A stretch of DNA of 64,000 nucleotides from an uncultured Bdellovibrionales bacterium (GCA_965366815.1 CBDUGV010000001.1:10916-74915), one strand, 5' to 3'; counted from the first letter of the stretch, positions 1,806 through 39,135 are shown. Made by a program: numbers and translations. The notes: a model not told the origin generated them from the sequence alone.

Positions 1806-1832
1806 AATTTTGGAGCTGAGGTACTGCGTTCG

Positions 1833-14242: not shown

Positions 14243-14251
14243 CTATTTGAT

Positions 14252-15655: not shown

Positions 15656-15675
15656 GAGCTTACGCCTAACGAGAA

Positions 15676-15769
15676 TGGCGGAGACGTATGGGAATCGAAC
15701 CCACCCAGGACCCTAAAGCCCTACAACGGTTTTGAAGACCGAGAGCACCACCAGGCACCAAACGCCTCC
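15676..15769 (-). tRNA. selC: tRNA-Sec (anticodon UCA)
   Basis: Reverse complement reads GGAGGCGT...CTTCAAA (U33, UCA, A37)...long variable stem-loop...GGGTTCGATTCC T-loop...ACGTCTCC-G-CCA. 8-bp acceptor stem and about 94 nt length, typical of bacterial tRNA-Sec. Genomically encoded CCA. Confidence 0.8.
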
Positions 15770-17555: not shown

Positions 17556-20009
17556 TCACTTCCCCCGCTTTGCTCGAACGAGCAGAATCACTGAAATCAA
17601 TGTCACTGCGTAGCCAAGCCAGGTTGAAACATGGCTAAACAAAGAATAGCGCAACGTCGCTTCCGTCGTCGTCGGAGCATAGAATATCCGCTCACCGGAG
17701 CCGCGATAGACTCGGCCCTTCTCGGCGGTCCAATAGGGGAAATAGCTATAATTTATGCGATAGAGTTGTCCTGGCGTAAGGTGCTTCAGATCTATTTCTT
17801 GATTTCTTGCTCGCCAACTAAATAGCGGGGTTTTGGCGGCAACCCCTGGTTCTGGACCAACGAGTGGAAATAACTTACTGGCGATACGAACTTCGTGAGC
17901 AAGATATTTCTCGAGACTGTTGTACTCATCCAGCTCAATATTGTGTTGATACCAGACTGAGTAATGATCGATGAGGTATGGATTCTCATAATTAATTGGT
18001 ATGAGCGCCAGTCTCCCATTCGTCGCAAGGCTTGGAAACAAAGTCCGCAATCGCCGCTCTGTGATTGCACCGTTGACCACTATACCCACAGCAGCTTTGG
18101 GCAGATTCATGCCTGGTTTGACTTCCAGCAGTTCGAACCGTGCCCCCAAGCTTTCTCGGGCGTAGAGAAAAAACTCAAAAAAATGAAATGGTACATTTCC
18201 CTTCAAATCCAAGTAGAGGATAACTCGCTTTTGCACCGCCTCAATACGGGGACTGGCCGACTCTGCGATTCTCACAATTGCGTAGGGTCCAATCTCCGTG
18301 ATCGGCTCTAGAGCTAGATCTTTGATTTTTTGCGTGACCTCCTTTTTGCCAATCACCAGATGACTCACGCCAAACTCGCGCAGCTGCTGGGCTTTGTAGC
18401 GGTCGCTCAATTCTGCTCCGTCAACGAACAACAGGGGAATATGGTATCCAGAGACACCAAGCAAACGAGCAGAAGCAACGGGCATTCGATAGGCAAGCGA
18501 GCTTTGAATGAACAAACCATTGAGCGTCTCCTTGCCAAGCTCCTTCTGCAATCTCGACTCCATATAATGAGCTGAGAGAAAGGGAAACTCTTTGTAATCA
18601 GAGAAGTAGCCAAACAATACTCTATCGACATTCTCTTGTTTTCGAAGATAGGCCAATACTGTACGAGCATCTTCGAGATGCTTGCGATCCTTGTGTTCGA
18701 GAATGAGCGGACGCTCGTAATGAGGAAAAAGCACATTCGATGCGATCGAGAGTAGACAAACGAGAACTATAATACTTTCACGAATCTCGCTTCGCTGCCG
18801 ATTGGCAAACCAAACAAGCGGCACGACAGCACAGATCACCGTTCCCAGCAGAAAGAGGTACCCGTAAAATCGATAATAGTGAAATCCAATTGGCAGACTG
18901 GTTGCAACAAATCCGCTCGAGAAAATCAGTAACCCCAGCAGGAGGCTCAGCCCGAGCGTGGAGAACAGACGGCATTTTTGAAGCACTGAACTGCAAATCG
19001 CGGTCGCAATGAGAATCAGTACCAGTAGGTTGGTAATTTCGATGCCCTCGAATCGCCCACCGAGCCAAGCTCGAGCCGTCCTCAACAGACCATAGAGCGG
19101 ATAACGGAAGAATATTTCAAGAAAATCACCAGCGGGTCGGTATATATCCTGCCCCAGATACTGTGGAGAAAACCAAAAGAAAGGAACTATCCAAAAACCC
19201 GCTAGACCAATCGCCAAAAAATGTGATTTCAGGATCAACGCTCGGCGCTCTGGGTAGCGGCAATAGACAACGAGCGCGATAAAAAGCGAGCAGGCCGCGG
19301 TCAAAGAATGCGTAATGAAAAGGAAAAAATACGCCAGGCTAGTCGTCCGTTTGTATCTGGCACCGTATCGCGCCAAACGCAGCAAAGCCCCCACATGCAC
19401 AAGAAGGAAATGCCAGCCGAGCCCCTGAGAAAAAAGACCTACGTTGAACAGTGCAGCACCGCCTATTCCAAACCATTGTCGATCGTGGTTGAGAAACCAA
19501 AAACCCAATGCGCAGACCAAGACGGCCAGAAGCCAATCGTAGCATTCAATCAAGTCCTTCTTTTCCTCAAACAACTCGACAGCCAAAGCCCGGGCAAGGT
19601 AGCGCATTGAAAACGGTAGAAACGCGCAACAACTGAGAAGCACAAGATGAGATGCGAGACGGACCGGTTCCGCCGAACAAAGCGCAAGCGGAAATGCGAG
19701 AATCGCTGTGAGAAGATGTGCGAAAAAAGCATAGAACTGAAAAGCGGGCCAGCCACTAAACCAGGAAGGATCGTAGAATCGCACTCGAAATGAGAGTAAC
19801 TGGTCGACGAGGCGTTCGGTAATCGCAATATGGCCTGGAAGATCTACAGAAGCGACAGGATTCGAAGTGAAATAGGTTCCGTACCAGTAGAAAATACAAA
19901 GGGCAAAACAGGAAATAATGCAGTCACCAGCCCTAAGGATGAAGGTGCGCGTCTCGCTGTAGCGAAGCTCAAATAGCCTAGTTTGAGATATATAGCGAAG
20001 GCTGGACAT
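17556..20009 (-). CDS. large polytopic membrane protein with C-terminal soluble domain (GT-C-like? function unknown)
   Basis: 817 aa. More than 10 hydrophobic helices in the first 450 aa, then a soluble domain. No confident motif. Confidence 0.5.
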   Translation of the reverse strand: MSSLRYISQTRLFELRYSETRTFILRAGDCIISCFALCIFYWYGTYFTSNPVASVDLPGHIAITERLVDQLLSFRVRFYDPSWFSGWPAFQFYAFFAHLLTAILAFPLALCSAEPVRLASHLVLLSCCAFLPFSMRYLARALAVELFEEKKDLIECYDWLLAVLVCALGFWFLNHDRQWFGIGGAALFNVGLFSQGLGWHFLLVHVGALLRLARYGARYKRTTSLAYFFLFITHSLTAACSLFIALVVYCRYPERRALILKSHFLAIGLAGFWIVPFFWFSPQYLGQDIYRPAGDFLEIFFRYPLYGLLRTARAWLGGRFEGIEITNLLVLILIATAICSSVLQKCRLFSTLGLSLLLGLLIFSSGFVATSLPIGFHYYRFYGYLFLLGTVICAVVPLVWFANRQRSEIRESIIVLVCLLSIASNVLFPHYERPLILEHKDRKHLEDARTVLAYLRKQENVDRVLFGYFSDYKEFPFLSAHYMESRLQKELGKETLNGLFIQSSLAYRMPVASARLLGVSGYHIPLLFVDGAELSDRYKAQQLREFGVSHLVIGKKEVTQKIKDLALEPITEIGPYAIVRIAESASPRIEAVQKRVILYLDLKGNVPFHFFEFFLYARESLGARFELLEVKPGMNLPKAAVGIVVNGAITERRLRTLFPSLATNGRLALIPINYENPYLIDHYSVWYQHNIELDEYNSLEKYLAHEVRIASKLFPLVGPEPGVAAKTPLFSWRARNQEIDLKHLTPGQLYRINYSYFPYWTAEKGRVYRGSGERIFYAPTTTEATLRYSLFSHVSTWLGYAVTLISVILLVRAKRGK

Positions 20010-20132: not shown

Positions 20133-20570
20133 ATGAAATTAAGTACTGACGCCCCGGAACAGCATTTGGCAATCCTCTGTGTTGCAGGATTTTGCGTATT
20201 TGTAAGTGTGATTAGCGCTTTCACCTCTGGAGACGAGGCCGATCAGGATGTTGCCAATCAGCAAGCGAGCTACTTGGAAAGCGGTGTTACCAAGTACGAC
20301 AACCCCCAACTTACCTGGTGGGAAAAACTGTTTTGTCGGGGATATCAACGTTCTCAGGGCTGCGGCTATCGCTTTATGCATCCACTCAAACAGAAGTTTG
20401 AAGACTTGGGAATTGAAGTACAAGAAGCTCCGGCAAACAAAGTCAATGCCGTAGATTACAACGGCTCACTTCCGACGAATCGTGCCTTTTCAGGACGTAT
20501 CAAGGTTGAGCACCGACATTGGGAACAGCCCGCCTGGGTTAAGAGAAACTCTACTGCACAAGAGCGCTAG
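20133..20570 (+). CDS. hypothetical protein with N-terminal membrane anchor
   Basis: ORF only; one hydrophobic helix. Confidence 0.3.
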   Translation: MKLSTDAPEQHLAILCVAGFCVFVSVISAFTSGDEADQDVANQQASYLESGVTKYDNPQLTWWEKLFCRGYQRSQGCGYRFMHPLKQKFEDLGIEVQEAPANKVNAVDYNGSLPTNRAFSGRIKVEHRHWEQPAWVKRNSTAQER

Positions 20571-20959
20571 AGACGCTTTTTGGCAAACCAAGCAGTCCAA
20601 GAAATAGAAATAAGAAAGCATAGAGCGGTTAATCCCTTAAGCGGGATACTCTCTGCAGCCACACCAATCACTGCAAGGGGCAAGGCCAAGGCTAAACACA
20701 TTCCGAAATCAAACAGCTCATAGCCAAAACGAGAGAGAACCATCGCAACTACTCCGAGAAAAAAAATCACGAACGTCAGCGGGGTAAGGATACTCACGCG
20801 CAACATCCCTCCAAAATTGTAGTAGCTCGGCAATGGGAGGAAGAGAAAAACAAACCAGAGTGCAACCAATGCAAACCCGAGCGCCAAGACAACGCGGCCC
20901 CAATTGAGTCTCTCTAGAGCAAGATTATTTCCTAGTAATTTCAAAGACATACCTTCCAA
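20567..20959 (-). CDS. small integral membrane protein (hypothetical)
   Basis: Four hydrophobic helices in 130 aa. Confidence 0.4.
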   Translation of the reverse strand: MEGMSLKLLGNNLALERLNWGRVVLALGFALVALWFVFLFLPLPSYYNFGGMLRVSILTPLTFVIFFLGVVAMVLSRFGYELFDFGMCLALALPLAVIGVAAESIPLKGLTALCFLISISWTAWFAKKRL

Positions 20960-21093: not shown

Positions 21094-22917
21094 TTGCGTT
21101 TTTCGAGCGGAACACGAATTGCAGAGCGCTATGAAGTAGTAAAATTGCTCGGGAGCGGGACCGTTGGAACAGTCGTGCATGTACTCGATCGAAGCCTCGA
21201 TCAACAATCGCTCGCCTTAAAGATTCTACACGCTGATTTGATAGGGAACGATACTATCTTACAAAGGTTCCAAAGTGAGGTGATGTTCGCTCGTCAGCTC
21301 GCGCACCCGCACATCGTGCGAGTCTACGATTTTGAGCAGAAAGACAACTATTACTTCCTTTCCATGGAGTATGTGGTGGGCTGTGACCTCGATGTAATCA
21401 TCCGAAGTTATCAAAGCCGCAAATTGCCGCTCCAGGAGGCGCTCTTCTTGCTCAGTCAAATTGCCGAAGGGCTTAGTTTTGCGCATCAGAAAAACATCGT
21501 TCATCGAGATCTCAAACCGCACAATATCTTGATCGATAGCACGGGCTTAGCAAAGCTCACAGATTTCGGACTCGCTCACAGTCTTGAGTCCTCGCTCGGG
21601 CTCACTCGTACGGGACAAATGCCAGGTACGCCCCTCTACATGGCTCCGGAACAGTTTCTCGGTGCACCTCCAACCCCAAAGGTCGATATATACGCCTTTG
21701 GAATACTCGCCTTTGAACTCCTTACCGGCAGCCCCCCTTTTGTAAGCGAGAATTTCATCGCTATCGGTGAACAGCACAGGAGCGAGCCACTGCCAATTGA
21801 GCTGCTGCGACAGAATGCAGTTCCGGATTGGCTTGAGCAGCTGATTGTTGATTGCACCAAGAAAGATCCGGCGGACCGCGTGCAATCGATGAGGCATGTG
21901 TTAGGCAGGCTCAGTGACCGAGCCACTATCGACGTTGGACAAAGCAAGACGATATTGCGGACGGTGGTTCGGCGGCGCCAGCGCAGCTACAATTTGCTGA
22001 GTACAAGAAACTTGAAAGTATTGCGGCTTGGCTGGTGCTTGTTTGTGCTCTCCCTCTTCTGCCAACTCACCCTTTTCGAAAAGAATGCGAATCTTCGATT
22101 GGCATCGTACCTATATCAAATTGAACAGCAGCTCGGATACGATATGTCCATTCTCCGCAAGGGCATCGGTTTTGGGAAATTTTCCATAGGATCGGATGCA
22201 GATCTCTTCGCTGCTGCACAGTTTGGAATTTTTGAAGAACTGGAGGCCCTCATTCGAGCTGGTATGAACCCGAACATCAGAGACAAAGAAGGCAATACCT
22301 TACTCCACCACGCAGCTCGACTCCCCGCTAGAGTTCCGCAATATCTAATCAGCGATGAGGGCGTGGCCGATCCGAATCTGCAGAACAAAAACGGAGAGAC
22401 ACCACTGCTCGTTGCAGTAAAGGCTGGAAACAAACGAATCGTTGATGAGTTTCTAATGAACAATGCGTCTCCTACGATAGCGGATAAAGAGGGCAACACC
22501 CCTTTGCTTTGGGCAGTGTCTGTTGGCGATTTGGCAATTGTAGAATCGCTCGTCAAACCGATGATGAGATATCGACCGCTGAGAGGAACCAAAATATACA
22601 CACCTACACAAAGAACCAGAGAGGGGCTTACTGCGCTACACCTCGCTGTTGAAGCCGGTCGAGTCGCAATTCTCAAAATTTTGATCAACGAATTCGCTGA
22701 TGTGAATGAAAGAGATTCTCAGGGTCAAACTGCGATCATGCGGCTTGTGCAACAAGCACCTACGGACAATACCATTCAAACACTCGAATTGCTTTTGCAG
22801 CACAATGCCAGTCTAAGTGCGCGAGATGATGAGGGGCTCACTGCATTTCAGTATGCCGATGCCAATTCAAACCAATATTGGGCCGATAGATTGCGCCAAC
22901 ACCGAGCAGATTCCTGA
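21094..22917 (+). CDS. Ser/Thr protein kinase with predicted TM helix and C-terminal ankyrin repeats
   Basis: Hanks motifs LGSGTVGTV, HRDLKPHNILID, DFGLA, APE. Hydrophobic segment LGWCLFVLSLFCQLTLF. At least 5 ankyrin repeats (GNTLLHHAARL, GETPLLVAVKAGN, GNTPLLWAVSVGD, GLTALHLAVEAG...). TTG start. Confidence 0.85.
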   Translation: MRFSSGTRIAERYEVVKLLGSGTVGTVVHVLDRSLDQQSLALKILHADLIGNDTILQRFQSEVMFARQLAHPHIVRVYDFEQKDNYYFLSMEYVVGCDLDVIIRSYQSRKLPLQEALFLLSQIAEGLSFAHQKNIVHRDLKPHNILIDSTGLAKLTDFGLAHSLESSLGLTRTGQMPGTPLYMAPEQFLGAPPTPKVDIYAFGILAFELLTGSPPFVSENFIAIGEQHRSEPLPIELLRQNAVPDWLEQLIVDCTKKDPADRVQSMRHVLGRLSDRATIDVGQSKTILRTVVRRRQRSYNLLSTRNLKVLRLGWCLFVLSLFCQLTLFEKNANLRLASYLYQIEQQLGYDMSILRKGIGFGKFSIGSDADLFAAAQFGIFEELEALIRAGMNPNIRDKEGNTLLHHAARLPARVPQYLISDEGVADPNLQNKNGETPLLVAVKAGNKRIVDEFLMNNASPTIADKEGNTPLLWAVSVGDLAIVESLVKPMMRYRPLRGTKIYTPTQRTREGLTALHLAVEAGRVAILKILINEFADVNERDSQGQTAIMRLVQQAPTDNTIQTLELLLQHNASLSARDDEGLTAFQYADANSNQYWADRLRQHRADS

Positions 22918-22925: not shown

Positions 22926-24671
22926 ATGGAAGGAGCATACCAACAGTTTCTCAAACCAAATACGCTCCTCGACGGGAGGTATCAACTGGTCTCTGCCTTG
23001 GGCTCTGGAGCAACGGGAACTGTGTTTCTCGCAGAGGATCAGAATCTCAACTCCGAAGCGCTCGCAATAAAGATTCTTCACCCGCACTTGTTGCTGAGTG
23101 ACGAGAGCTACAGTCGATTCCGTGCGGAAACGCGAATCACCATGCGCTTGTCTCACCCCAATATACTCACTTGTTTCGGAATGGGACAGCACGGCAATCA
23201 GATCAGTTTCTTAAAAATGGAGTACTGTGATGGAACTTCCTTGGCTGATTTGATCGATAGGAAACCTCAGCATCGAAAGCTAACAGAGCTCATTTGCATC
23301 CTACGAGATATCGCTTCAGCGTTAGAGTATGCACATTTGCAAGGAGTAATTCACCGAGATTTGAAGCCGGAAAATATTCTGATCGGCGAAGATAGAGAAG
23401 TGCGAGTCGCGGACTTCGGTATTGCTCAGATAGTCCGGCAAGAGGCGCGTTTGACGGGCCAGGGCGATATACTTGGAACTCCTTATTATATGTCACCAGA
23501 GCAGTTGCGCTCGGAACTCATTGACGGCAGGTCAGACATGTACTCGTTTGGCATCATGGCCTACGAGGTTATTACCGGACAACTGCCCTTTACTGCCGAT
23601 TCCTTCTGGGAACTTGCCGAATTACATATCTCGGCCCCATTGCCAGTTGAGCCTCTAGAAAGGGTGCATACCCCGCCCTGGTTAATCGACTTAGTAGCCG
23701 GCTGCGTGGAAAAGGATCGTCACAAGCGTTTGAACTCCATGTCGGAAATCTACAATATTCTAGAACAACACTGTCCCCTCGAGCAGAGCCCGGATCGGGA
23801 TCGAAAGCGAAGCCCTAGTTTTTTAGAGCAGCCAAGCCAGGAAGAGAGTTCCAAATTCGTTTTTACTTTTCAGAAAAATTACGATCGAGTGGTGAGGTAC
23901 GCCTTTTCCGTTTTCATCCTATTGGTTTTATTTCTGGCACCTCGCATCAACAGCTCGGTCGATTGGCGCTACAATATCGTAGCGTTTCGAATAGAGCGGA
24001 TTTTCGGAGTGAAGCTGCCATGGGTTCGAAAACTGATGCACGTACCTGCCCACATTTCCTATCCGGAAAGCATGTTTGGATCTGGACCCGAGTTTAAGCA
24101 CGAAACGCTATCTCTCTTAAAAGCCGGATACGAAGTCAATGTCTACAGTGAATCACGCGGTGAATACCCGATTCATTATGTAGTGTACAGGTTCGCAGAT
24201 TGTCAGATAGTACGGTATCTCGTCGAATACGGCGCTCTGGTAAACGTAAGCAATCGAGCCGGGCAAACTCCCCTCTTCATCGCTGTTTTGAGGGGTGAAC
24301 CCGAAACCGTTGAATTCTTGCTCTCAGAAAAAGCCGACCCGAATATCGCGACACTAGAAGGATTAGTCCCCCTCAGCCAGGCCGCAAAGAGTTCTCGGTA
24401 CGATATTGCTCGCAGTCTGCTAGAGCAAAGTCGAGTTCCAATAGACGTGAATCGAGCGGATCTTCAGAATCAAACTCCACTCCACTTTGCAGTGCCAAGC
24501 GGCCACCGAAAACTGGTCGAGTTGCTTTTAACGCACGGAGCAGACCCTACCTTGGTCAACGATGATGGCGATAGTCCACTGACCCTGGCGAAGAGCCTTC
24601 AGCCGAGAAAACGCTATGCCGCAGTAATTGAACTATTGGAGAAACAGAGTGTACCGGAAGACGCTCGGTAG
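22926..24671 (+). CDS. Ser/Thr protein kinase with predicted TM helix and C-terminal ankyrin repeats (paralog)
   Basis: HRDLKPENILIG, DFGIA, SPEQ. Hydrophobic FSVFILLVLFLAP. Ankyrin repeats (GQTPLFIAVLRGE, NQTPLHFAVPSGH...). 8 bp after the previous kinase gene. Confidence 0.85.
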   Translation: MEGAYQQFLKPNTLLDGRYQLVSALGSGATGTVFLAEDQNLNSEALAIKILHPHLLLSDESYSRFRAETRITMRLSHPNILTCFGMGQHGNQISFLKMEYCDGTSLADLIDRKPQHRKLTELICILRDIASALEYAHLQGVIHRDLKPENILIGEDREVRVADFGIAQIVRQEARLTGQGDILGTPYYMSPEQLRSELIDGRSDMYSFGIMAYEVITGQLPFTADSFWELAELHISAPLPVEPLERVHTPPWLIDLVAGCVEKDRHKRLNSMSEIYNILEQHCPLEQSPDRDRKRSPSFLEQPSQEESSKFVFTFQKNYDRVVRYAFSVFILLVLFLAPRINSSVDWRYNIVAFRIERIFGVKLPWVRKLMHVPAHISYPESMFGSGPEFKHETLSLLKAGYEVNVYSESRGEYPIHYVVYRFADCQIVRYLVEYGALVNVSNRAGQTPLFIAVLRGEPETVEFLLSEKADPNIATLEGLVPLSQAAKSSRYDIARSLLEQSRVPIDVNRADLQNQTPLHFAVPSGHRKLVELLLTHGADPTLVNDDGDSPLTLAKSLQPRKRYAAVIELLEKQSVPEDAR

Positions 24672-24672: not shown

Positions 24673-25182
24673 TTAGAAATTTCCGATATCAAAAGGATCT
24701 GGCGGTCCAGCCAGGTTGTCATCAAAAGGTACTGCACCCCCACCACCGGCTCCCGCACCACCAGCTTGGGCTCCAGCACCCTGGGCTTGTTGCGCACCTG
24801 CCTGCTGAGTTCCACAACCGAAATCCCCAAAGTAGAGGCTCACGCCAACTGCAACCGTGCCAGCTCCGCAAGCAGTCATCACCGCAGCCTTGGCGTTCTT
24901 GAAATCACCTAAGGCAGCAGAACAGATCGCCATAAAGCCGCTTGCGGCCAAAATAAGCGCTCCAAGCTCTCCTTCCATTAAGAAATAGATATCGCAGATA
25001 ACCGAGCGAATAGCTCCGTTGGCAAATTGCGGCGCGTTGTAGGCGTATTGCCAAGGTGCCTGCGCTTGCGCGTGGGCAGAATCTGGAAAGCCGAAACCAA
25101 GCAGCAAGGCGCAGACTATGAGCTGCGCTCCCAATACGGGCGTGCTCTGAAGATGCAGAGTTCGAGAGTGCTGGTAGTTCAT
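24673..25182 (-). CDS. VirB2/TrbC-like pilin-like protein with Gly/Ala/Gln-rich linker and conserved C-terminal tail (paralog 5)
   Basis: Core ICDIYFLMEGELGALILAASGFMAICSAALGDFKNAK. Linker QQAGAQQAQGAGAQAGGAGAGGGG. Tail AVPFDDNLAGPPDPFDIGNF nearly identical to paralog 4 at DNA level. Confidence 0.6.
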   Translation of the reverse strand: MNYQHSRTLHLQSTPVLGAQLIVCALLLGFGFPDSAHAQAQAPWQYAYNAPQFANGAIRSVICDIYFLMEGELGALILAASGFMAICSAALGDFKNAKAAVMTACGAGTVAVGVSLYFGDFGCGTQQAGAQQAQGAGAQAGGAGAGGGGAVPFDDNLAGPPDPFDIGNF

Positions 25183-25188
25183 AACGCC

Positions 25189-25695
25189 TTAGAAATTCCC
25201 GATATCGAAGGGATCTGGCGGTCCAGCCAAATTGTCATCAAAAGGCACCGGGCCACCACCGCCCGCACCAGCACCGCCAGCACCGCCAGCACCACCGGCA
25301 CCACCGGCACCACCGGCACCACCACCGCCATTTCCGGTAGCACCACCGTTGGCCGCGCCTTGGGAACAGGTAGCAGCAGCATCTTCGAAATAAAGACTCA
25401 TCATTGCTGAAATCGAAAATGCGCCGATTCCAACGATCACAAAACTATAACTGGCTCGGAAATTTCCCATTGCCGCAGAAACGACGGCACCGACTCCGGC
25501 TGCCGACATCAAGAGAGCTCCAAGACTACCTTCCATATGGGCGCAAAGCTCTTGGATTGCCCATTCGGCACTCGCAAAGGCAAAAGCCACTTCTGGAAGT
25601 GACAGACCCAGCATTAACAGTCCGAAACAGAACACGGTAACGCGATGTATGCGCCCGATTGTTCTATCTAGTTCGGCAATTCGTTTTGATTTCAT
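25189..25695 (-). CDS. VirB2/TrbC-like pilin-like protein with Gly/Ala-rich linker and conserved C-terminal tail (paralog 4)
   Basis: GAGGAGG SD. Pilin-like core GALLMSAAGVGAVVSAAMGNFRASY...LYF. Then (GGA)n-type linker and tail PVPFDDNLAGPPDPFDIGNF. Confidence 0.6.
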   Translation of the reverse strand: MKSKRIAELDRTIGRIHRVTVFCFGLLMLGLSLPEVAFAFASAEWAIQELCAHMEGSLGALLMSAAGVGAVVSAAMGNFRASYSFVIVGIGAFSISAMMSLYFEDAAATCSQGAANGGATGNGGGGAGGAGGAGGAGGAGGAGAGGGGPVPFDDNLAGPPDPFDIGNF

Positions 25696-25729
25696 TTAGA
25701 GAAAACCTCCTCACTTTGGTTCGTGCCAG

Positions 25730-26128
25730 CTAACAAGCCAACGAAGGAAACAACATTGCAACCATGTCGGGAAAGATAAACGAACCAACTGAGACGAATA
25801 TCAAAGCCCATGCTCCCTTAAAGGAACCAGCCGCAGCCGCAACAAGCGCGAGAATACCAGTAAGCGCTGTTACCATTGCACCAAAATCTTTCTTGAGAAC
25901 GTCTTCGAGAATATTACAAGCTGCGGTTTGGAAGATGCCGCCGCCTTGTTGAGCCAACGCCGGTTCGATCAATGCTGAACAAATAAGCACTGCACCAATT
26001 GCGTATAAGCCAAGCGAGAGGTTCACCTGCTGTGAACAATCGCGAACAAAACTGAAAATCTTAGAAAACCCTTTGCCCATCATGCACCACCAGTTTGCAT
26101 CGAGGAAGCTAAATGCCGTGTTGCTCAT
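25730..26128 (-). CDS. VirB2/TrbC-like pilin-like small protein (paralog 3)
   Basis: Track ORF extends to 26338 and overlaps paralog 2. ATG at 26128 with GGAG SD gives a 133 aa protein. Leader ...IEPALA-QQG. Mature ACNILEDVLKKDFGAMVTALTGILALVAAAAGSFKGAW. Confidence 0.55.
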   Translation of the reverse strand: MSNTAFSFLDANWWCMMGKGFSKIFSFVRDCSQQVNLSLGLYAIGAVLICSALIEPALAQQGGGIFQTAACNILEDVLKKDFGAMVTALTGILALVAAAAGSFKGAWALIFVSVGSFIFPDMVAMLFPSLAC

Positions 26129-26145
26129 CTCTAGCTCCGCTCGAA

Positions 26146-26535
26146 CTAGCCTCCAGAACATTGAGGAAAGAACAATGTCATATAGCCCCGTAAAATAAAC
26201 CCACCGACTGCGACCACCACACAGGCCCAAGCGGCTTTGAATCCACCCATCGCTGAAGCAATAATGGCGCCGATGCCCGCAATTGCGGTAAGCATCGCAC
26301 CAAACGTGCCATCGGCCATATCCAACACGTTGTTGCATATGGTGCCGTACTTCGCGCCGTCATACGCCAGTGCCGGTTCGACACTCACTGCGCATAAGAG
26401 CAGGGCGGCCCCTATTAGCAAGAGCGCTGTTCGCTCATCTTGTATACAGGTACGTAACCCTTTCATTTGCTGTACACCTTCACCCCGTATCTCGGACCGC
26501 CAATGATACCGATTCACCCGTATTGGTATCATCAA
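26146..26535 (-). CDS. VirB2/TrbC-like pilin-like small protein (paralog 2)
   Basis: 129 aa. Leader ...VEPALA-YDG. Mature ICNNVLDMADGTFGAMLTAIAGIGAIIASAMGGFKAAWACVVVAVGGFIL. Confidence 0.6.
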   Translation of the reverse strand: MMIPIRVNRYHWRSEIRGEGVQQMKGLRTCIQDERTALLLIGAALLLCAVSVEPALAYDGAKYGTICNNVLDMADGTFGAMLTAIAGIGAIIASAMGGFKAAWACVVVAVGGFILRGYMTLFFPQCSGG

Positions 26536-26577
26536 CGACCGTCATTGCTCACCAAGCGAAAAGATCCGCTTAGGCGA

Positions 26578-26976
26578 CTAACACGCGGCGAAAAATAGAG
26601 TAATCCACGCACGAAGAATAAATGCGCCAACCGCAACTACCACAAGAGTCCATGCCATTTTGAATCCACCAACCGCAGAAGCGATAATGGCTCCAATACC
26701 AGCACCAACCGTTATCAAGGCACCAAATGGGCCCTCAATAAATCCAAGTAGAAATCCACAAGCAGCCTGATATAGCCCGCCTCCAGTCGTATCCCCCTGC
26801 GCAAAAACTGCACCAGCAGTTCCTACACTCAACAGGAGTACACCAAGAGCAAAAAGCAATGTGTTTGCATTTCGCTCAACTGAAAGACTCAACCCGACAC
26901 AGGAGTTGCGATACAGTTTCGCTATCGCGTTTTCCTTGTAAGAACGCTCAGTCATCGTCCCACCATTCATATCCAT
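26578..26976 (-). CDS. VirB2/TrbC-like type IV secretion pilin-like small protein (paralog 1)
   Basis: 132 aa. Long leader with hydrophobic segment ending AVFA-QG. About 72-aa mature part with two hydrophobic helices. GPFGALITVGAGIGAIIASAVGGFK...VVVAVGAFIL resembles recalled A. tumefaciens VirB2 (ICTFILGPFGQSLAVLGIVAIGIS...). Recalled homology, not searched. Confidence 0.6.
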   Translation of the reverse strand: MDMNGGTMTERSYKENAIAKLYRNSCVGLSLSVERNANTLLFALGVLLLSVGTAGAVFAQGDTTGGGLYQAACGFLLGFIEGPFGALITVGAGIGAIIASAVGGFKMAWTLVVVAVGAFILRAWITLFFAAC

Positions 26977-27173
26977 TTAATAAAACAACCATTATATCTA
27001 ATGAGGTCACTTACATTTGTTATGGGTACCGAATTGGGGGGTGTTACTTAAAAATACTAGAGCAAATCTTTGGAGATTTAGGGCACTTAGTAGCTATTTC
27101 CTAGGTAATTTACTTAGTTATGGGCGGTGGGATTAAATAGTGCGGTTCAGATGACAATCGACTTAACTAGCTG

Positions 27174-27855: not shown

Positions 27856-30800
27856 TCAGCGAATCCCTAGCGCTCTAAGCCAAAAGGCCGGAGCATCCGA
27901 GGTGCGACAGCGTTCTGCTTTTGCTGAGTCACTGAGCTCTGCCAGCTCTTTTTGTTCCGCCTCGAACTTTCCTCCCTCGCGAAGACTGAGTAAGAGATAG
28001 TGCTTTGCCCTCGTACAGGCAACGTAGAATACCCGGCGTTCTTCGCTGTAGTACATCGCTTGTTGGTTCTCTTCGAGCAACTGCATAGTCAGCGTTTTCT
28101 TTCGGCGGTAGTCATCCGTCGGATCTTCGATCCTTACTCCAAGCATGCTGCGCCCGGAGCCATCGGGGATTTCTGATTTGATGAAATCGTGCTCCCTTCG
28201 CTGGCGACCGGCAAGAAAGGGAAGTACCACCATCGGATACTCCAAGCCCTTTGACCCGTGAATGGTGCTTAACACAATCGGATGAGAGACACTATTTGCC
28301 GTTGGCGCATCCGAACCAGCAACGCGCTCGTTGATCAGCCAATTCAGGGCATCCTGTGGATTTACACCACATTCGTTCTTTCTCTCCGCCGATGCGAGTC
28401 GGTCAATAAAGCGCTCAATATTGCCAAATGCTTCACCCTTCCCCACTGCAACATATGCTTCCCGCAATCCGGAGGTCCTCGCAATATGCTCAAGTAAGTT
28501 GGAACATGGAACCATGCGACTCAAGCGCTGCCAATCGGCCAATCTCCCTTGGACAAAGCTTAGAAGCTCGCTCGGTGAAGTGTGTTCACCTTCGAGAGTA
28601 ATCCAAGCCCCGTTTAACTCGGCGTAGAGGTCTACAATGTGCCGATCGCTGAGGCCCATTAAAGGAGAGCGCAAAACTCCAACTAAGGCAATCGCATCGT
28701 CGGGGTGAACGAGGAGTCGCAACACATGCTCGAGCTGGGCAATCTCCGCTAGTTCATAGAAGCCACTACTGTGCGAAATACTAAACTCCAGTTTCTCCGC
28801 CTCCAGAGCATTCGCAACTCGCGAAAGCTGCCGCACAGTCCGAGTAAGAACTGCAATTTGCGGAGAACCACTGTGGAGCGAAAGCTCCGGGTACTGTGAA
28901 GAGCGACCATCTGTATCGAAAGAAGACAACAGCTGCTTGAGGTGCGCAGCGAGGAATTTCGCTTCACCCGTATCGCTATTTTCTTGGCGACCAGCCCCCT
29001 TTTCGTAAGGTTTCCACAACTGTTGAACCTTCGGCTCACCTGCAGTATTCACTGGTGTTTTCGCGTGCATCTGCTGGGCCCGAAGCGCAGTTGGAGAGAG
29101 CGCTTTTGGAACCTTGCACGCTTCGTCTGTAGCAAAATCTACCGCAAAAAGCTTCTCAAACAAGTCGTTCACGAAATCGACGATCTCAGGCTGCGAACGG
29201 TAATTATCGTCCAGGCTCAGCGAAATTCCGCCAACCCGCTCAAGCTGCTCTCGAGCCAAGTCAAACACTCGGCTATCCCCGCCGCGAAAACCGTAGATCG
29301 ACTGCTGGGCATCGCCGACGAGAAAGAGTGTATCTGCCGCGAGCTCCGTGCCGCAGAGGCCAGCGATCTTCGATAGAAGCTCCCATTGCTGGCGATCGGT
29401 ATCCTGAAACTCATCGACCATGATGTGATGAAATTGCTGCTGGAGGCGTTGGCAAACTGCTGCCTGCCGGGCTCGATACCGGGGCTCCACCTCTTGGCAC
29501 AGCATCCGATGGGCCCCAGAAATCAGATCGTCGAAATCTACTAGCTGTTTGCCGGCCTTAAGCCGCTGGTAGCGTTGGCGCACCATAGCTGCAAGCTGCG
29601 CAACACCTTGGACGAGCTGCCAAGCCTGTCGCTCTGCTACATCTGAAAGCGTGAATACTGCGCGCTGCTCCTGTAATGTCCCGAGTGTATCTCGTACATC
29701 GTTCATAAAATTGCGAGGCGTGTGCTTACTTTTACGCTTCGCAAATCCTTGATTCTCCTGAATATAAAGCCGAAGCGATGCTATCTGCGAGAGCCAGTCG
29801 GTATCGTCGGCTTTCAGTAGCTTCTCAACTTCCGCCTCGAGGTATCGATGTGCAGCCAGCTGATCTGCTGGCATCTCCCCACCCTTCCCCGCCAACCATT
29901 CTGCAAGGTCTTGAAGCCAAAGGGCGAAGTATGCAGCGTGCTCTTGTTGGAGTTCGCCGCGTTTTCGCTTTTGATACTCGGAGACTAGCTCAGTTAGGTA
30001 GCTGCGTTTAGACTCATCGAGTACCTCATTGAGATCGTCTAGGAGTTGTGGACTCAAGGCAAGCCGTGCGAGTTGTTGTTGCAACGTTCGGGCATGCACG
30101 CCGAAATCCAATACGCGCTCGGCAGTTTCGCGCCCATCTTCTGAACGCACCACTGCTCTCACCGCTGCGCCAAGTTGAGTCTGCTGCTCGCTAGAGGTAA
30201 GAATTCGATTAAAGTGCTCGAGTCCGGAAAGCCGTAAATCCATTGCAACAATCCTCGTGGCCAACCCGTGGATTGTGCTTATCTGGGCCTGGGAAACAGC
30301 GGCTTTTGCCTGAGTAAACCGACCTCGCTCAACATCGCTCAGCACCGATCCCCGATAGCTATTGCTTGCAAGGACCCCGCTCAAGGCCTGCTCAACTCGT
30401 TGGCGAATCTCCTCGGCTGCCTTTTCGGTAAAAGTGACGGCCAACAAGGACTCAATTGACTCGCCGCGGTGAATCAGCTCAAGCACGCGGGCTCGCAGCA
30501 CTGCGGTTTTCCCTGAACCAGCACCAGCGCTAAGACATATCGGCTGCTCCAATCGACATGCCGCTTGCTGCTCCGCTGAGAGCCGAAGCTCACGAGAAGA
30601 ATGCTGGTTCTGAAGAAAGTCCCTCGGCACAAGAGATCCAGCACGGATTTCAGCCAAAGGCTCCTTGCTAGTCGCTTCTTCGCTGGTCGCTTCTTCTCTG
30701 GATTTCCACTTCTTTTCAAGCAGCACTTCATCACGGCAATGAAGCGCTGCATGCTGCGAATAGCGATCGATATCGGCCTCAAGCGGCTGCAGGAACGAGC

Positions 30801-33800
30801 CTTCGGCCAGCATCCAAAGAAGCGATCGCACATGGGCCAGAGTTTGTTCTACGCGACGCTCAACCGCCTCGCTCGAAAATGAACTTCCCCGTGCCTCAAG
30901 TGCTAAAAGCTCCCGACAGACTCCTTTTCGCGGCGATGGCATATCGAGATCGCTGCGGTTGGGCTGCGACAAATCTATGATCCCCCCTCTCGCGGGCAGT
31001 GTCTCAAAGCATTGGCGTAGGGCAGCTGCATAGAGAGGCAACTGCAAGCTCTTTTGCGAATCTATATCTCGCAAAGTAGCTGCCCCCCCGGTCTTATAGT
31101 CCCATATCGCCAGGGGCGTACCGCTGCCTTGATCTACGACAATGTGCCGATCGATACGGTCAATGCATCCAGTCACTTCAAGGCTAAGCCCAATGTCAGC
31201 CTCTGGCTGAACGAGCAACGCTGGTGCATCTTCGCTGAGCCCAAATCGGTATTCGACCCGTTCTGGAACAGTTTGGAGAAAGTCGCGCTGGTAAATCAGG
31301 GCGGCAAACAACGGCCCTTGTCTCCCCTGAACTGCCGATGGTCGCTTGTTCGACTGCAGACCCGCTAAGAGCCAATTCTTTCGGCTGCGGAGCAAGGGGT
31401 GAGAATCCCAATCGAGAGGATGATCGGCAAACGCAGCCATGGCTATTGCGATCATCCTCTTGCAGGCCTGCTCGAGGTCTCCTTGCAAGGACTCGGGCGA
31501 AAAGCCTTGGCCTGGATCAAAGAATCGCTCAAGGCAGCGATGGACAATCGTTCCAACATACAGAGGTATCTCCGACTCAAAGCCGCTGGAGCGTGGTTGG
31601 AGACCTAAGAGTTCTTGGAATAAAAACTGGAGGGGATTCTCGGAAAGCAATTCTAGCGATGAAACAGAAAGCCGAAGCGAAAGAGCTCCCTCTTGCTGTT
31701 CTAGCCCGGCATTCTTCGCCCTAATTCGACAGAGCCGCATCGAACTTTCAGGCCCTAATTGGCCGTCATATTCGGTAAAATGGGGCGAAAGGCGTCCGCG
31801 CAGTAGCGCCAGGGCCCGCGGACAGGGTTCTACCGGAGCAAGACTTCCATCAGTGGCGATCACCTCGCTATCCGCATCTGCGAGTAACCTGAGTTCATTT
31901 CTTGCGAGCTGATCTGGAAATAATGAGGCGAGATCCGTGAGAAAGGTCATCGGTAAGACCTCATTCTGCTCATCGCGATCTGGCACGCTAAAGACGAGCT
32001 CTTTCGCATTCCGGCATAGCTGCGCTAGGAGCCAATGACTCTCTTGGACGCGGGAGACAGCCCGACCCCGTCTATTCAACTGGTTGGTCACCACATCGAG
32101 CTCGCCATTCTCCGGGGCTGAGCCGCCTTGGATCCAAGCGTTGAGTTCGCGGGCACTGCATCCCAAAAGTACAACCGCAGGGCTAAAGATCGTCCGCCCA
32201 TCGAGAAACTCAGTTAGGCGCACCGCATCGGGCTGGAAATCTACCTGCAGCTGAATCCGATCAACATACTCTAGAAGATGGCTGACAAAACGAGCTAAAC
32301 TCACCCGTTCGAAATCAGCAGCGGCATAGCGAAAGACCTGTTGCACTTGGCGTGTTGCTCGAACCAGTTGCTGGAGGGGCGCTTGCGGATTTGAGGAAGA
32401 GCTACGCAAAGTCGATAGACGAAGGCGTATTCGATTGTAGTACTGCCGAATAGCAGCAGCATACTGCGGTGCCGTTTCATTTGCTGACTGTAATTTCGCG
32501 GCATACTCAGCTTCCTGCTCGAAAATCGCCAAACTAGCTATACCGCTGAGCAGAAGCTCTACTTCTCGGCGAACAGAGTCTCGCAGCTCGCGGCCGCCAC
32601 GAGTTTCTTGATATGAACGCGGACTGTCGCAGCAGTACCGCAATCGACCGACCAATTGCTGGAGCAGATGCTCGCTCCCAGCGCTTTCTTCCGATGGAAG
32701 GAGTTCGAGCGCGACTATGCCCTGCTCTATACAAGAAAATAACGGTCGAACGCCGGCAACCTGGGCTACTAAGAAGTCCTCAACACTGCGATTTCCTCGC
32801 TGTTTCTGTAGCTGCGGATGCTCGAGTATCGGATGAACTACCTCACGATGCCGCTTTAAGAAGCGCTTGGTCGACGCAGTAGCAAGCTTTGGCGAAGCAG
32901 CAAACGGGTGGCTAAAAAGAGCCTCGGCGCTCGCAAGATTCTGCTCTTGGAGCCAAGAAATCAGTTTTCGAAGGAAATCAGCCGGTAGCGTGCCAGCTAA
33001 GGCGGTGCCCTTGGTAATTTGCAACGGGATATTGAGACGATCAAACTCAGCTTCCATTAAGGAGCGATATGGTTCAACGTCAAACGCCAAGATGTGATAC
33101 TCAGCTGGTTGCGCCCTGCCTGCGGTTCGAGCTGCGGCTATCGCCTCAGCCAAGCGGCGGGCTTCGTCACGGCGCTCAGCAGAACGCCAAATAGCAACGC
33201 CGTCCAAGGACGCCCCCAGGTCAGTTTCCCCCAATAGCTTAGAGTCGATCAATTGATCGACAAGCAGGGCTCGATCGGGAACGGTACTGGGGTGTTGCTC
33301 GACTGCCGCGATTTTAGCGCTTGAAGTGCTAAGGAAATACCGCAGCGATTGGAGATAGGCTTCCGAAGGCTTTGGAAATTGTACGCTATCGCTCGCAGTG
33401 CTTTGATCGACTTTTTGCGATCCCCTCGCTGGTTCTGCCTCAAAAAGTGATGTTTGAACCGCTGTGGATGAAGAGCTGCGATTGGCTGTTTCAGTGGTCT
33501 TCGTATCAGAATTTCTCGTATGATCACGATACTCGTTTTGGCAAACGACTGCATCGACAGAGACTCGGAACTCGCAAAGATGAGAGAGTCTATCATAGAC
33601 ACTTTGCTCTAGCGGAAACACCTGCATTGGCCGAAACAAGAGTATGGTGTCTACGTCAATCGTCTCTACACGGTTGAGCGCGACGAGCAACTGTTCGAGC
33701 ACGGCTGGCCCATCGTAGGCGCCGACGAACGATTGTACTTCCTGATAGGCAGCTATCAGCGAAATGAGTTCTTCTCGACGGTCGAGAATAACATTGCCGT

Positions 33801-34188
33801 GCTCATCAATTGCACTTCGAATCAGCTGATCTTCGGTCTGGTGGAGGCGAACCGAATCGAGAAACCGCAAAAGCCGGTCTATCTCCTTCGGAATGCCGTG
33901 AATGGCGCTCGATAGCTCCTGACGAAGCAAGGGGAACTGGCTCTGCTCAGTAATGAGCCGCCACAGCGCAGTTCTTCGAGCCGGATGATGCAGGCGTCTG
34001 ACGGACTGCTCGGGTCTAAGCTCTCGTAGCAAACGCACTGCGGCATCAGCAGTCGTTAAGACAGTAGGCTCTAGCCCAGCATTTCGACGAAGCGATTCAA
34101 CTACGAATCGAGTCTCGCATAAAATCCAGGAATCGGAGGAAAGACTCTCAAACAGCTTCATCACTCCGCGACTAAAATTCTTCGGCAA
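27856..34188 (-). CDS. 2110-aa fused AddB-like (RecB-family PD-(D/E)xK nuclease) + AddA/UvrD-like SF1 helicase
   Basis: RecB nuclease motifs GCIDRIDRH...DYKTGG...QLPLY at about aa 1000. Then UvrD motifs: AGAGSGKT (I), TFTEKAAEE (Ia), VDEFQDTD (II), GDAQQSIYGFRG (III), YRSQ (IV), IHGSKGLE (V), VACTRAK (VI). No second nuclease domain at the C-terminus. Confidence 0.8.
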   Translation of the reverse strand: MPKNFSRGVMKLFESLSSDSWILCETRFVVESLRRNAGLEPTVLTTADAAVRLLRELRPEQSVRRLHHPARRTALWRLITEQSQFPLLRQELSSAIHGIPKEIDRLLRFLDSVRLHQTEDQLIRSAIDEHGNVILDRREELISLIAAYQEVQSFVGAYDGPAVLEQLLVALNRVETIDVDTILLFRPMQVFPLEQSVYDRLSHLCEFRVSVDAVVCQNEYRDHTRNSDTKTTETANRSSSSTAVQTSLFEAEPARGSQKVDQSTASDSVQFPKPSEAYLQSLRYFLSTSSAKIAAVEQHPSTVPDRALLVDQLIDSKLLGETDLGASLDGVAIWRSAERRDEARRLAEAIAAARTAGRAQPAEYHILAFDVEPYRSLMEAEFDRLNIPLQITKGTALAGTLPADFLRKLISWLQEQNLASAEALFSHPFAASPKLATASTKRFLKRHREVVHPILEHPQLQKQRGNRSVEDFLVAQVAGVRPLFSCIEQGIVALELLPSEESAGSEHLLQQLVGRLRYCCDSPRSYQETRGGRELRDSVRREVELLLSGIASLAIFEQEAEYAAKLQSANETAPQYAAAIRQYYNRIRLRLSTLRSSSSNPQAPLQQLVRATRQVQQVFRYAAADFERVSLARFVSHLLEYVDRIQLQVDFQPDAVRLTEFLDGRTIFSPAVVLLGCSARELNAWIQGGSAPENGELDVVTNQLNRRGRAVSRVQESHWLLAQLCRNAKELVFSVPDRDEQNEVLPMTFLTDLASLFPDQLARNELRLLADADSEVIATDGSLAPVEPCPRALALLRGRLSPHFTEYDGQLGPESSMRLCRIRAKNAGLEQQEGALSLRLSVSSLELLSENPLQFLFQELLGLQPRSSGFESEIPLYVGTIVHRCLERFFDPGQGFSPESLQGDLEQACKRMIAIAMAAFADHPLDWDSHPLLRSRKNWLLAGLQSNKRPSAVQGRQGPLFAALIYQRDFLQTVPERVEYRFGLSEDAPALLVQPEADIGLSLEVTGCIDRIDRHIVVDQGSGTPLAIWDYKTGGAATLRDIDSQKSLQLPLYAAALRQCFETLPARGGIIDLSQPNRSDLDMPSPRKGVCRELLALEARGSSFSSEAVERRVEQTLAHVRSLLWMLAEGSFLQPLEADIDRYSQHAALHCRDEVLLEKKWKSREEATSEEATSKEPLAEIRAGSLVPRDFLQNQHSSRELRLSAEQQAACRLEQPICLSAGAGSGKTAVLRARVLELIHRGESIESLLAVTFTEKAAEEIRQRVEQALSGVLASNSYRGSVLSDVERGRFTQAKAAVSQAQISTIHGLATRIVAMDLRLSGLEHFNRILTSSEQQTQLGAAVRAVVRSEDGRETAERVLDFGVHARTLQQQLARLALSPQLLDDLNEVLDESKRSYLTELVSEYQKRKRGELQQEHAAYFALWLQDLAEWLAGKGGEMPADQLAAHRYLEAEVEKLLKADDTDWLSQIASLRLYIQENQGFAKRKSKHTPRNFMNDVRDTLGTLQEQRAVFTLSDVAERQAWQLVQGVAQLAAMVRQRYQRLKAGKQLVDFDDLISGAHRMLCQEVEPRYRARQAAVCQRLQQQFHHIMVDEFQDTDRQQWELLSKIAGLCGTELAADTLFLVGDAQQSIYGFRGGDSRVFDLAREQLERVGGISLSLDDNYRSQPEIVDFVNDLFEKLFAVDFATDEACKVPKALSPTALRAQQMHAKTPVNTAGEPKVQQLWKPYEKGAGRQENSDTGEAKFLAAHLKQLLSSFDTDGRSSQYPELSLHSGSPQIAVLTRTVRQLSRVANALEAEKLEFSISHSSGFYELAEIAQLEHVLRLLVHPDDAIALVGVLRSPLMGLSDRHIVDLYAELNGAWITLEGEHTSPSELLSFVQGRLADWQRLSRMVPCSNLLEHIARTSGLREAYVAVGKGEAFGNIERFIDRLASAERKNECGVNPQDALNWLINERVAGSDAPTANSVSHPIVLSTIHGSKGLEYPMVVLPFLAGRQRREHDFIKSEIPDGSGRSMLGVRIEDPTDDYRRKKTLTMQLLEENQQAMYYSEERRVFYVACTRAKHYLLLSLREGGKFEAEQKELAELSDSAKAERCRTSDAPAFWLRALGIR

Positions 34189-38250: not shown

Positions 38251-39135
38251 CTATCTCGTGGTTAGGCGCTCGTATAACTCAGTGAGATCTTCGTCACTGT
38301 AGAATTCGAGGGTCAGGCGACCAGCAGCCTTATTCCCAGCCTTTCGCACAAGATGAACCTTGGTTCCAAGCGCCTTCTGGAGATCTCCGACGATTCTTTG
38401 ATCTTCAACGCTGAGCTTCTTTGCGGGTGATTTCCTAGCTGTACCACCGTGGGACACCACCTCTAATTGGGACGCACCGCTGATGATGTCCTCCAATTGA
38501 GACCTAGTGATATCTGCCAGCTGGGGAATGATTTTCTTGCGTTCTGCTTTATCCTCGAGCTGTGCGAGTAACAGCACCTTGCTTTCAGAAGCACCAGCAA
38601 TCAAAGCAGCCTGCAGATCGTCGGGTAAAGACAGCACATCGAGACTGCGCTGAACCACTGACTTAGAGATACCCAGCTTCTTAGAAATATCGCGAATGCT
38701 CAAACTGAACTTTTCTCGCAGATGCCCTATCGCTAGAGCCCGTTCCATCGGAGCCAGATTCTCTCGTTGGATGTTCTCTACAAGCTGCTTACCGAGGACA
38801 GTCGCATCATCTCCTACTTCCGAATCGATGATCGCGGGAATTGTCGACAGACCAAGAGCTCGGGACGCTCTCAACCTTCGCTCACCGGCGATAAGGCGAT
38901 AGGTCCCACCAGGAGTGACCTGAACGAGCACTGGGCTGAGTACACCGTATTCTTTAATAGAATTGGCAAGTTCAGCTAAGGACTCATCGCTAAATACTCG
39001 CCGGGGCTGATCCGGGTCTACATCGATGTCTACGACTGAAAGATAACGAAACGGACTTCCAGACCGAGCCCGTTCCGCCAAGCTAGGGCCACCAAACAAA
39101 GGGTTGTTATCCAGAGTTACAGGCTTACGACTCAT
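38251..39135 (-). CDS. parB: ParB/Spo0J partition protein
   Basis: ParB box GERRLRASRALGL, HTH region; 294 aa. Overlaps parA stop. Confidence 0.85.
   Translation of the reverse strand: MSRKPVTLDNNPLFGGPSLAERARSGSPFRYLSVVDIDVDPDQPRRVFSDESLAELANSIKEYGVLSPVLVQVTPGGTYRLIAGERRLRASRALGLSTIPAIIDSEVGDDATVLGKQLVENIQRENLAPMERALAIGHLREKFSLSIRDISKKLGISKSVVQRSLDVLSLPDDLQAALIAGASESKVLLLAQLEDKAERKKIIPQLADITRSQLEDIISGASQLEVVSHGGTARKSPAKKLSVEDQRIVGDLQKALGTKVHLVRKAGNKAAGRLTLEFYSDEDLTELYERLTTR

Follow-up and report, generated by a model that had tools for sequence, protein, structure and literature searches.

Within a 64,000-nucleotide (nt) stretch of DNA from an uncultured Bdellovibrionales bacterium (GCA_965366815.1 CBDUGV010000001.1:10916-74915), hereafter the window, positions 24673-26976 carry five consecutive co-directional open reading frames (ORFs) on the minus strand, transcribed in the order A-B-C-D-E. 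We propose that this array encodes a heteromeric set of five pilin-like proteins of the VirB2/TrbC superfamily, cooperating with a small membrane protein of 145 amino acids (aa) encoded nearby, and we give this reading a probability of about one half. The fold family itself is known, and so are tandem virB2 paralogs; the VirB2-type pilins known so far are encoded within type IV secretion system (T4SS) loci, either by one gene or by variable copies that arose through recent amplification. The novelty here lies in a fixed, ordered set of five orthogroups with a dedicated partner, a putative cysteine staple, tails on the last two proteins, and an origin-proximal site in the core chromosome without adjacent machinery. 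One protein fold would have been divided into five ancient, individually conserved subunits with their own partner, beside a chromosomal origin. As this set has been retained throughout a group of uncultured Bdellovibrio-like bacteria, its product is probably an envelope structure not described before.

The array and its relationship to VirB2/TrbC pilins

The conservation of these ORFs confirms that they are real genes and not chance reading frames, since a word-indexed search of a set of 5.8 billion proteins returned 57 homolog clusters, an exhaustive search of a 50%-identity library returned 616 representatives at E<=1e-3 (504 of them at E<=1e-10, almost all unannotated), and the same array was found in about 20 other loci. 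The initial annotation had described five consecutive minus-strand paralogs sharing one architecture, and the ORFs, the alignment and a scan for hydropathy and AxA sites all agree with this description. The five share an alignable core in which certain G, A and F positions do not vary, and the core motifs (GPFG or GxFGA, EGPFGAL and AGIGAIIASAxGGFK) all appear in their alignment, so that the motifs quoted earlier were recovered. Every paralog has an N-terminal hydrophobic stretch, then AxA, then two further hydrophobic stretches, the hydrophobic two-helix core measuring about 72 aa.

Paralog A, the first gene of the array (26578-26976, minus strand), encodes 132 aa. Its leader of 59 aa comprises a semi-conserved LYRxxC stretch, predicted to be cytoplasmic, a hydrophobic segment and the sequence AVFA/Q (the slash marks the predicted cut), and is followed by a mature part of about 73 aa with a Cys at its end. 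Paralog B (26146-26466, minus strand) was assigned 106 aa from an ATG preceded by GAAGG; it is identical to the database protein P0002, which also has 106 aa in public gene calls. Its leader ends in PALA/YD, and the mature part of about 72 aa ends in ...PQCSGG. Paralog C (25730-26128, minus strand) encodes 132 aa from MSNTAF, with a leader ending in PALA/QQ and a mature part of about 73 aa, again with a Cys at the end. Alternative ATGs of C at 26083 and 26080 would give 117 and 116 aa; public calls place 132 aa in locus L008 and 116 aa in L009, and the mechanical ORF extends to 26338, overlapping B in a different frame. Paralogs D (25189-25695) and E (24673-25182), both also on the minus strand, encode 168 and 169 aa. 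Start sites were chosen from the ribosome-binding context and public gene calls. The range of 129-169 aa given previously holds as far as the presence of the ORFs is concerned; its lower figure belongs to a TTG-started ORF of B reaching up to 26535, a gene which we place at 106 aa. The gaps between the genes, from A to E, are 111, 17, 34 and 6 nt, because of which the five probably form an operon.

Paralog A matches the hidden Markov model (HMM) of the family at E 4e-46. Its AlphaFold2 (AF2) model, built with 61 homologs, contains helices at residues 68-81, 83-102 and 105-128, and its core reaches a predicted local distance difference test (pLDDT) score of 85-91. In the alignments, helix 2 is rich in GxxxG and AxxxA motifs. 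The positive AxA scan and the helix-helix core of the model agree with the leader, cleavage site and two-helix fold anticipated in the initial annotation, the cleavage itself being a prediction.

The same annotation had assigned the proteins to the VirB2/TrbC-like pilins, and several comparisons point the same way. The Pfam TrbC model (PF04956) is matched over nearly its full length by B (E 5e-4, model positions 9-88 of 98) and C (E 9e-4, positions 7-88 of 98), and by A at E 0.17; the corresponding scores, 20.7, 19.9 and 12.5 bits, compare with a gathering score of 27.9. Paralogs D and E have no Pfam TrbC match. When 61 family members were scanned singly, 31 matched TrbC at E<=0.1 (best 4.1e-6); no other Pfam family was matched by more than 2 of the 61, and there was no recurring competitor. 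A precomputed PF04956 match exists for the homolog P0026 and for one array gene of L042. The HMM search thus yielded matches in half of the members scanned and near-full-length ones in three of the five window proteins, with all scores of the latter below threshold.

A profile-profile comparison was made with hhalign against eight bona fide VirB2/TrbC proteins from annotated MPF_T conjugative plasmids. These references were retrieved with a T-pilin query that is 99.2% identical to an annotated virB2 product; all eight adjoin a VirB3 gene and most also a VirB1-type gene. The family aligned to them over 71 columns with a probability of 89.7% and E 1.9e-6, in a register that superimposes the A-x-A/Q site, the xGPFG motif, the first long helix, the basic loop (GGFK versus FGR) and the second helix. 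The real score was 42.6, as against 15.4 for the reversed reference and 12.4 +/- 2.6 for column shuffles; shuffling in 12-column blocks, by which the transmembrane layout is kept, gave 14.2 +/- 3.4 with a maximum of 21.2 among 60, about 8 standard deviations below the real score. Because the reversed and shuffled controls score so far lower, the match is not one of mere hydrophobic composition. On the strength of these sequence comparisons we place the family within the VirB2/TrbC superfamily, as one of its divergent branches. Fold searches were uninformative, as they returned generic helical matches only.

The resemblance to the pilins of the Agrobacterium tumefaciens T-pilus and of RP4 (TrbC) extends to a long leader cleaved at A-x-A/Q, a mature part of about 72-74 aa, an xGPFG motif opening the first long helix, and two membrane-length helices joined by a short basic loop; the C-terminal extensions of D and E also recall the RP4 TrbC precursor. 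The array genes differ in falling below the Pfam threshold and in having no adjacent VirB1, VirB3 or VirB4 gene, neighbours of this kind being present for all eight references. They differ further in carrying a terminal Cys pair with no TraF-like cyclase nearby, in being five fixed paralogs rather than one gene, and in being chromosomal, vertical and absent from plasmids.

Two other classes of small hydrophobic protein were compared. Paralog E has weak matches to DUF2976 (E 0.006, 16.8 versus 28.2 bits) and to TIGR03745 (E 0.014, 15.2 versus 52.5 bits), models of small hydrophobic putative pilins of integrative and conjugative elements (MPF_G); the scores lie far under the cut-offs, and E is the sole family member matching either model. 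Type IV and Flp pilins were considered and rejected: the class III signal motif (G/FTLxE or G/xxxxEY) is absent from the five sequences and from the family consensus, and none of the five paralogs has a Pfam match to a type IV or Flp pilin.

Five ancient orthogroups and a travelling partner on the chromosome

When the mature cores of 14 complete arrays were placed in a neighbour-joining tree, five clades were resolved, each containing one gene per genome and each corresponding to one array position from A to E. Identity within the clades amounts to 67% (A), 54% (B), 52% (C), 58% (D) and 44% (E) and generally exceeds that between clades (25-53%); orthogroup A is the most conserved, and the core of E the most divergent. 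The housekeeping neighbours in the compared genomes are only about 45-78% identical to those of the window, so the split into five predates a deep divergence, and the five-fold paralogy is ancient and non-redundant. Every locus with enough sequence has five to seven members in tandem. Paralog A is triplicated in L028, and four genomes (L016 2933-3556, L021 6419-7117, L023 10386-11054 and L024 9611-10237) have at array position 2 a sixth clade, whose proteins, about 207-232 aa as open frames, have an extra N-terminal region and lack both conserved Cys residues. The representative library also holds members of 200-300 aa with two family stretches, i.e. fused doublets. Solitary family copies occur outside the array at L031 1172-1552 and L028 19031-19528 (minus strand).

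Where the same species was assembled from several samples, its arrays are 99.7-99.9% identical and differ only by repeat-length indels, which make the D protein vary between 165 and 168 aa. The repeats concerned are GGN (Gly-codon) repeats at about 25230-25350, lying beside a 108-nt direct repeat which codes for the tails of E (24673-24780) and D (25189-25296) with 80% identity between the copies. Four or five public assemblies of the species end contigs inside the array, at window positions 25264-25345. We considered these breaks as a sign of hypervariability and dropped the idea, because their positions coincide with the GGN repeat and the 108-nt tail duplication and not with the cores.

The initial annotation had overlooked a gene of 145 aa (20133-20570, plus strand) that is the sole gene family travelling with the array. 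Clustering of flanking ORFs placed it in 16 of the 20 compared loci, the remaining four having truncated flanks. Relative to the array it has two placements, directly upstream in the same orientation or downstream and convergent. In the window it is separated from the array by two kinase genes and a gene of 130 aa (20567-20959). This lineage-specific partner is a bitopic protein with N-terminal KLNxDAPxQH, one transmembrane helix and a domain carrying an invariant NP..W..C-R-G..R...C.....HP pattern (C-x8-C-x5-H). It has no Pfam match, its relatives make up only about 20 clusters in the database of 5.8 billion proteins, and its AF2 model, with a pLDDT of 60, is unreliable. Further clusters of seemingly conserved neighbours turned out to be opposite-strand shadow ORFs.

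Among species-representative genomes, the family is confined to metagenome-assembled genomes labelled Bdellovibrionota, 'uncultured Bdellovibrionales', Oligoflexia, 'bacterium' or Pseudomonadota/Proteobacteria, one of which has the array on a contig of 1.87 Mb (GCA_046328905.1 STL-BDEC1). A tblastn search of paralog B against 72,556 plasmids gave zero matches even at E 10, the family was not found in viral contigs, and a metagenome scan added six short contigs only. The chromosomal neighbourhood of the array is conserved and includes selA/selB/tRNA-Sec, an NTP-transferase, a Ni-insertion fragment, a sigma-54 activator, a polyprenyl synthase, ParB, ParA and a RepA-type initiator (PF10134). By this gene context, the array is chromosomal, vertically inherited and close to a putative ParAB/RepA-iteron origin. 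A literature search found no paper on VirB2 or T4SS in Bdellovibrionota or Oligoflexia that concerns this family.

Two locus-specific settings were also noted. In L015 a distant family member, P0057 (10001-10390), follows motA/motB-like genes, and in L049 (14363-17991, on the STL-BDEC1 contig of 1.87 Mb) two TadE-domain genes are divergent from the array. As each of these was seen in a single locus, we regard both as coincidental and not as linked genes.

Sets of about five distinct subunits, presumed to co-assemble, with a conserved order and one major, most conserved member are also found among the pseudopilins of the type II secretion system (GspG-K) and the pilins of type IV pili (PilA with FimU-PilVWX). 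The comparison, drawn from established knowledge, is one of logic and not of homology: fold and signal are unrelated, the array having a Sec-type AxA site and no class III motif for a prepilin peptidase (G/[F or M]-T-L-x-E). The Trw system of Bartonella shares a tandemly multiplied gene for a VirB2-type pilin. Its trwL copies are a lineage-specific amplification within a complete trw T4SS locus, whereas the array described here is ancient and ordered, and the rest of the system is missing locally. The rvh T4SS of Anaplasmataceae is closer in layout, with 8-15 virB2 copies in A. phagocytophilum and T4SS genes in distant loci; the Anaplasma virB2 array lies beside virB4-2 and varies between strains in copy number and sequence (PMC3556328). 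Chromosomal tandem VirB2 paralogs with two helices, signal peptides and an N-proximal Cys are common to both (PMC3556328). Here, in contrast, there are five fixed orthogroups in conserved order, the strains are near-identical, and there is no adjacent virB4.

Proposed assembly and competing explanations

Cysteines near the two ends of the mature core occur as a pair: among 196 members, 137 have both, 52 have neither and 7 have one only (Fisher p 2e-39, for sequences that are not phylogenetically independent). The 52 Cys-less members include the sixth clade. As the N- and C-terminal residues co-occur and would sit adjacent, both ends of the hairpin being predicted to be periplasmic, we infer that they form an intramolecular disulfide closing the hairpin. 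Beyond the conserved C-terminal Cys, D and E continue into Gly-rich acidic tails whose final 19 residues are identical (VPFDDNLAGPPDPFDIGNF). Acidic low-complexity tails are present in the D and E orthologs of most of the 14 genomes and commonly have an aromatic C-terminus, usually Phe; 12 of the 14 D proteins have F as their last residue. By analogy, these tails may be processed, as the TrbC precursor also has a C-terminal extension, or they may be exposed interaction peptides.

In the mechanism that we propose, the Sec system would insert the precursors, and signal peptidase I would cleave off their leaders behind AxA. The product would be a helical hairpin of about 72 aa in the inner membrane, with its ends in the periplasm and its basic loop (GGFK) in the cytoplasm. 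T-pilin and RP4 TrbC undergo head-to-tail cyclisation; here a disulfide between the Cys residues would staple the N- and C-termini instead. Together, the five kinds of subunit would then build a single heteromeric structure, pilus-like or lining a channel, with help from the bitopic partner. A would be the major subunit, B and C minor ones, and D and E specialised ones whose acidic, aromatic-ended tails are processed or exposed. Extraction and polymerisation would most likely be carried out by a VirB4-type machine encoded elsewhere, comparable with the scattered T4SS of Rickettsiales.

Around the array, components of such a machine were not found. Pfam scans of essentially all ORFs of at least 120 aa gave no VirB/Tra component in the 64-kb window, and precomputed Pfam calls gave no T4SS gene in the flanks of about 20 loci, up to about 10 kb. 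A phmmer search with VirB1 and VirB3-11 of the Ti plasmid against all ORFs in 485 kb produced only two chance-level hits. The absence of T4SS genes is thus firm locally, that is, for the window and for these flanks. The Pfam scans and the phmmer search bear out the earlier statement that VirB4, VirB6, VirB8-10 and VirD4 genes are lacking in the 64 kb, and the term 'orphan' used for the array holds locally, in the window and in the related loci.

Several observations weigh against the heteromeric VirB2/TrbC reading. There is no VirB3, VirB4 or other T4SS gene within about 10 kb, or in the window within 64 kb, unlike the situation of all VirB2 references, and no adjacent virB4-2, unlike that of the Anaplasma virB2 arrays. 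None of the five window proteins attains the TrbC gathering score (best 20.7 versus 27.9 bits). A profile search of PDB sequences gave no pilin, an NCBIfam scan gave nothing useful, and neither NCBI nor Pfam models name the array proteins. The heteromer and the division into major and minor roles are proposed from analogy and conservation levels only, and the putative filament, its processing and its expression are predicted.

It is possible, although we advance the idea only tentatively, that the VirB2-like hairpins and their partner form a small-membrane-protein complex that acts independently of any T4SS and without a VirB4 machine, for example a pore of the glycine-zipper kind, a lattice that stabilises the envelope or a component of a contact organelle used in predation, inner-membrane or periplasmic. 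Such a complex would fit a partner that is the only co-travelling gene, the lack of T4SS genes in 485 kb of flanks and in the precomputed Pfam calls, a strictly vertical and origin-proximal chromosomal location, the absence of the family from plasmid and viral collections, and a helix 2 rich in GxxxG/AxxxA motifs. The known pilins of the VirB2/TraA family speak against it: to our knowledge, every one of them depends on a VirB4-family ATPase for extraction and polymerisation. Moreover, the absence of T4SS genes from the window and the flanks is weak evidence, because scattered T4SS loci are documented in Rickettsiales (PMC3556328). Stated in full, this explanation, possible rather than probable, would have the five orthogroups and the partner form, by themselves and without any T4SS, a heteromeric filament or channel of the envelope that is restricted to one uncultured lineage of Bdellovibrionota/Oligoflexia. 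It would then be a new class of surface or contact structure built from disulfide-stapled conjugative-pilin folds, possibly serving predatory or host contact. The initial annotation, too, had suggested that the array may belong to a surface-filament or contact system of an undescribed kind, which is possible.

The remaining explanations appear less plausible. The array might be a remnant of a domesticated conjugative-plasmid backbone, with VirB2-like genes left over from a mating apparatus and since re-used or decaying. We consider this unlikely, even though an RPA gene (PF10134), ParA/ParB and iterons of about 22 nt lie at a distance of 13 kb, close to where the cumulative GC skew is lowest, and the same linkage recurs in L005, L014 and L027. 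All five orthogroups are intact and conserved over divergent genomes, so there is no decay, no other transfer gene remains nearby, and the flanking genes are housekeeping genes. This explanation also concerns origin and not present function, and it is compatible with the proposed heteromeric assembly. A more distant prospect, very improbable in our view, is that of secreted hydrophobic peptide toxins or bacteriocin-like pore formers, closed as hairpins by the disulfide, for which the 145-aa protein would be an immunity or maturation factor. The products are indeed small, hydrophobic and Gly/Ala-rich with a leader and a Cys pair, the host lineage is akin to predatory bacteria and a small membrane partner is encoded nearby; yet sequence and register match VirB2/TrbC specifically, Pfam scans of the window show neither an ABC/PCAT exporter nor a double-glycine leader nearby, and two helices of membrane-spanning length with a basic loop suit a membrane-resident hairpin. 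Toxin loci are usually patchy and turn over fast, whereas the five orthogroups are stably kept at a syntenic core locus. The initial annotation had turned to a precedent, the Trw system, for recent tandem pilin amplification linked to host-receptor variation. Antigenic or host-receptor variation in the style of Bartonella trwL or Anaplasma virB2 could be suspected from the tandem VirB2-like copies, from the triplication of A in L028 and the sixth clade in four genomes, and from the public assemblies that break within the array. This idea did not survive comparison and has hardly any probability left: 14 genomes with such divergent housekeeping proteins have the orthogroups in common, one of each per genome and in fixed order, the co-assembled strains are nearly identical apart from repeat-length indels, and the breaks fall at the GGN repeat and the 108-nt tail and not in hypervariable cores. 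The five ancient positional orthogroups in the tree are largely what rules it out.

The consequences differ with the machinery. If a scattered T4SS serves the array, this lineage of predator relatives would join Rickettsiales as a second, independent example of a T4SS that is dispersed, vertically inherited and accompanied by pilin paralogs. It would also suggest that the T4SS pilus is heteropolymeric, and of such a pilus we know of no description. If there is no T4SS, a conjugative-pilin fold would have been re-used for a new purpose. The terminal Cys pair suggests in addition a simple alternative to enzymatic pilin cyclisation.

Lineage-specific neighbours and other features of the window

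The 197 nt upstream of A (26977-27173, minus strand), the presumed location of the promoter, contain no sigma-54 consensus despite the conserved sigma-54 activator nearby. Sigma-70-like matches upstream of A do not exceed shuffle expectation, and a terminator scan is likewise at background.

Inserted between the partner and the array are two tandem genes for Ser/Thr kinases (21094-22917 and 22926-24671, plus strand), both with a central hydrophobic segment and C-terminal ankyrin repeats; the pair stands beside the array only in the species of the window and in L012. A 2H phosphoesterase gene adjoins the array only in the species of the window. On the other side, a minus-strand gene (27856-34188) encodes a helicase-nuclease of 2110 aa that combines a PD-(D/E)XK nuclease with a UvrD-type helicase as an AddA/AddB-like fusion. 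Of the 20 loci, 7 have this gene beside the array, with orthologs of 1988-2122 aa adjoining the array in L011, L012, L019, L028, L032 and L042; elsewhere it is absent from the covered flank or that side is not covered. The functional tie that had been suggested between the array and the ankyrin kinases, the 2H phosphoesterase and the helicase-nuclease is therefore not upheld, since these neighbours are lineage-specific and do not travel with it.

The putative origin comprises ParB (38251-39135, minus strand), ParA (39125-39892, minus strand) and RPA (40648-42054, plus strand), a block conserved in L005, L014 and L027. The intergenic region between ParA and RPA (39893-40647) contains iterons at 40188-40463, with at least 8 repeats of about 22 nt (ATCGTGTTTyGrACCnAAGT) at a spacing of 22 or 44 nt, and the cumulative GC skew has its minimum at 44-46 kb. 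In appearance the region is a RepA/iteron origin of plasmid type, although the replicon is of chromosome size and bears dxs, uppS, selAB, an Asx-tRNA synthetase gene and panB.

A complete selenocysteine module of selB, selA and tRNA-Sec (the latter at 15676-15769) occupies 12323-15769 on the minus strand and is syntenic with the array in most loci; an Rfam scan gave nothing beyond tRNA-Sec. Between this module and the partner gene, 17556-20009 (minus strand) encodes a polytopic membrane protein of 817 aa with a large C-terminal domain and no Pfam match at E 0.1. It gives the impression of a GT-C-type glycosyltransferase, and conserved counterparts occur in L012 (824 aa) and L033 (834 aa). An ORF of 631 aa at 5894-7789 (minus strand) has an undecaprenyl-diphosphate synthase domain at residues 384-604 only; roughly the first 380 residues match no Pfam family and may reflect a fusion or a mis-set start. 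At 52524-53420 (plus strand) lies a gene for a PEP-CTERM protein; L042 and L049 have exosortase genes in the vicinity of the array. The left end of the window (183-4229, plus strand) is occupied by an aryl-polyene-like set encoding an FAD halogenase-like protein, a ketosynthase, an ApeP dehydratase and an SDR protein.

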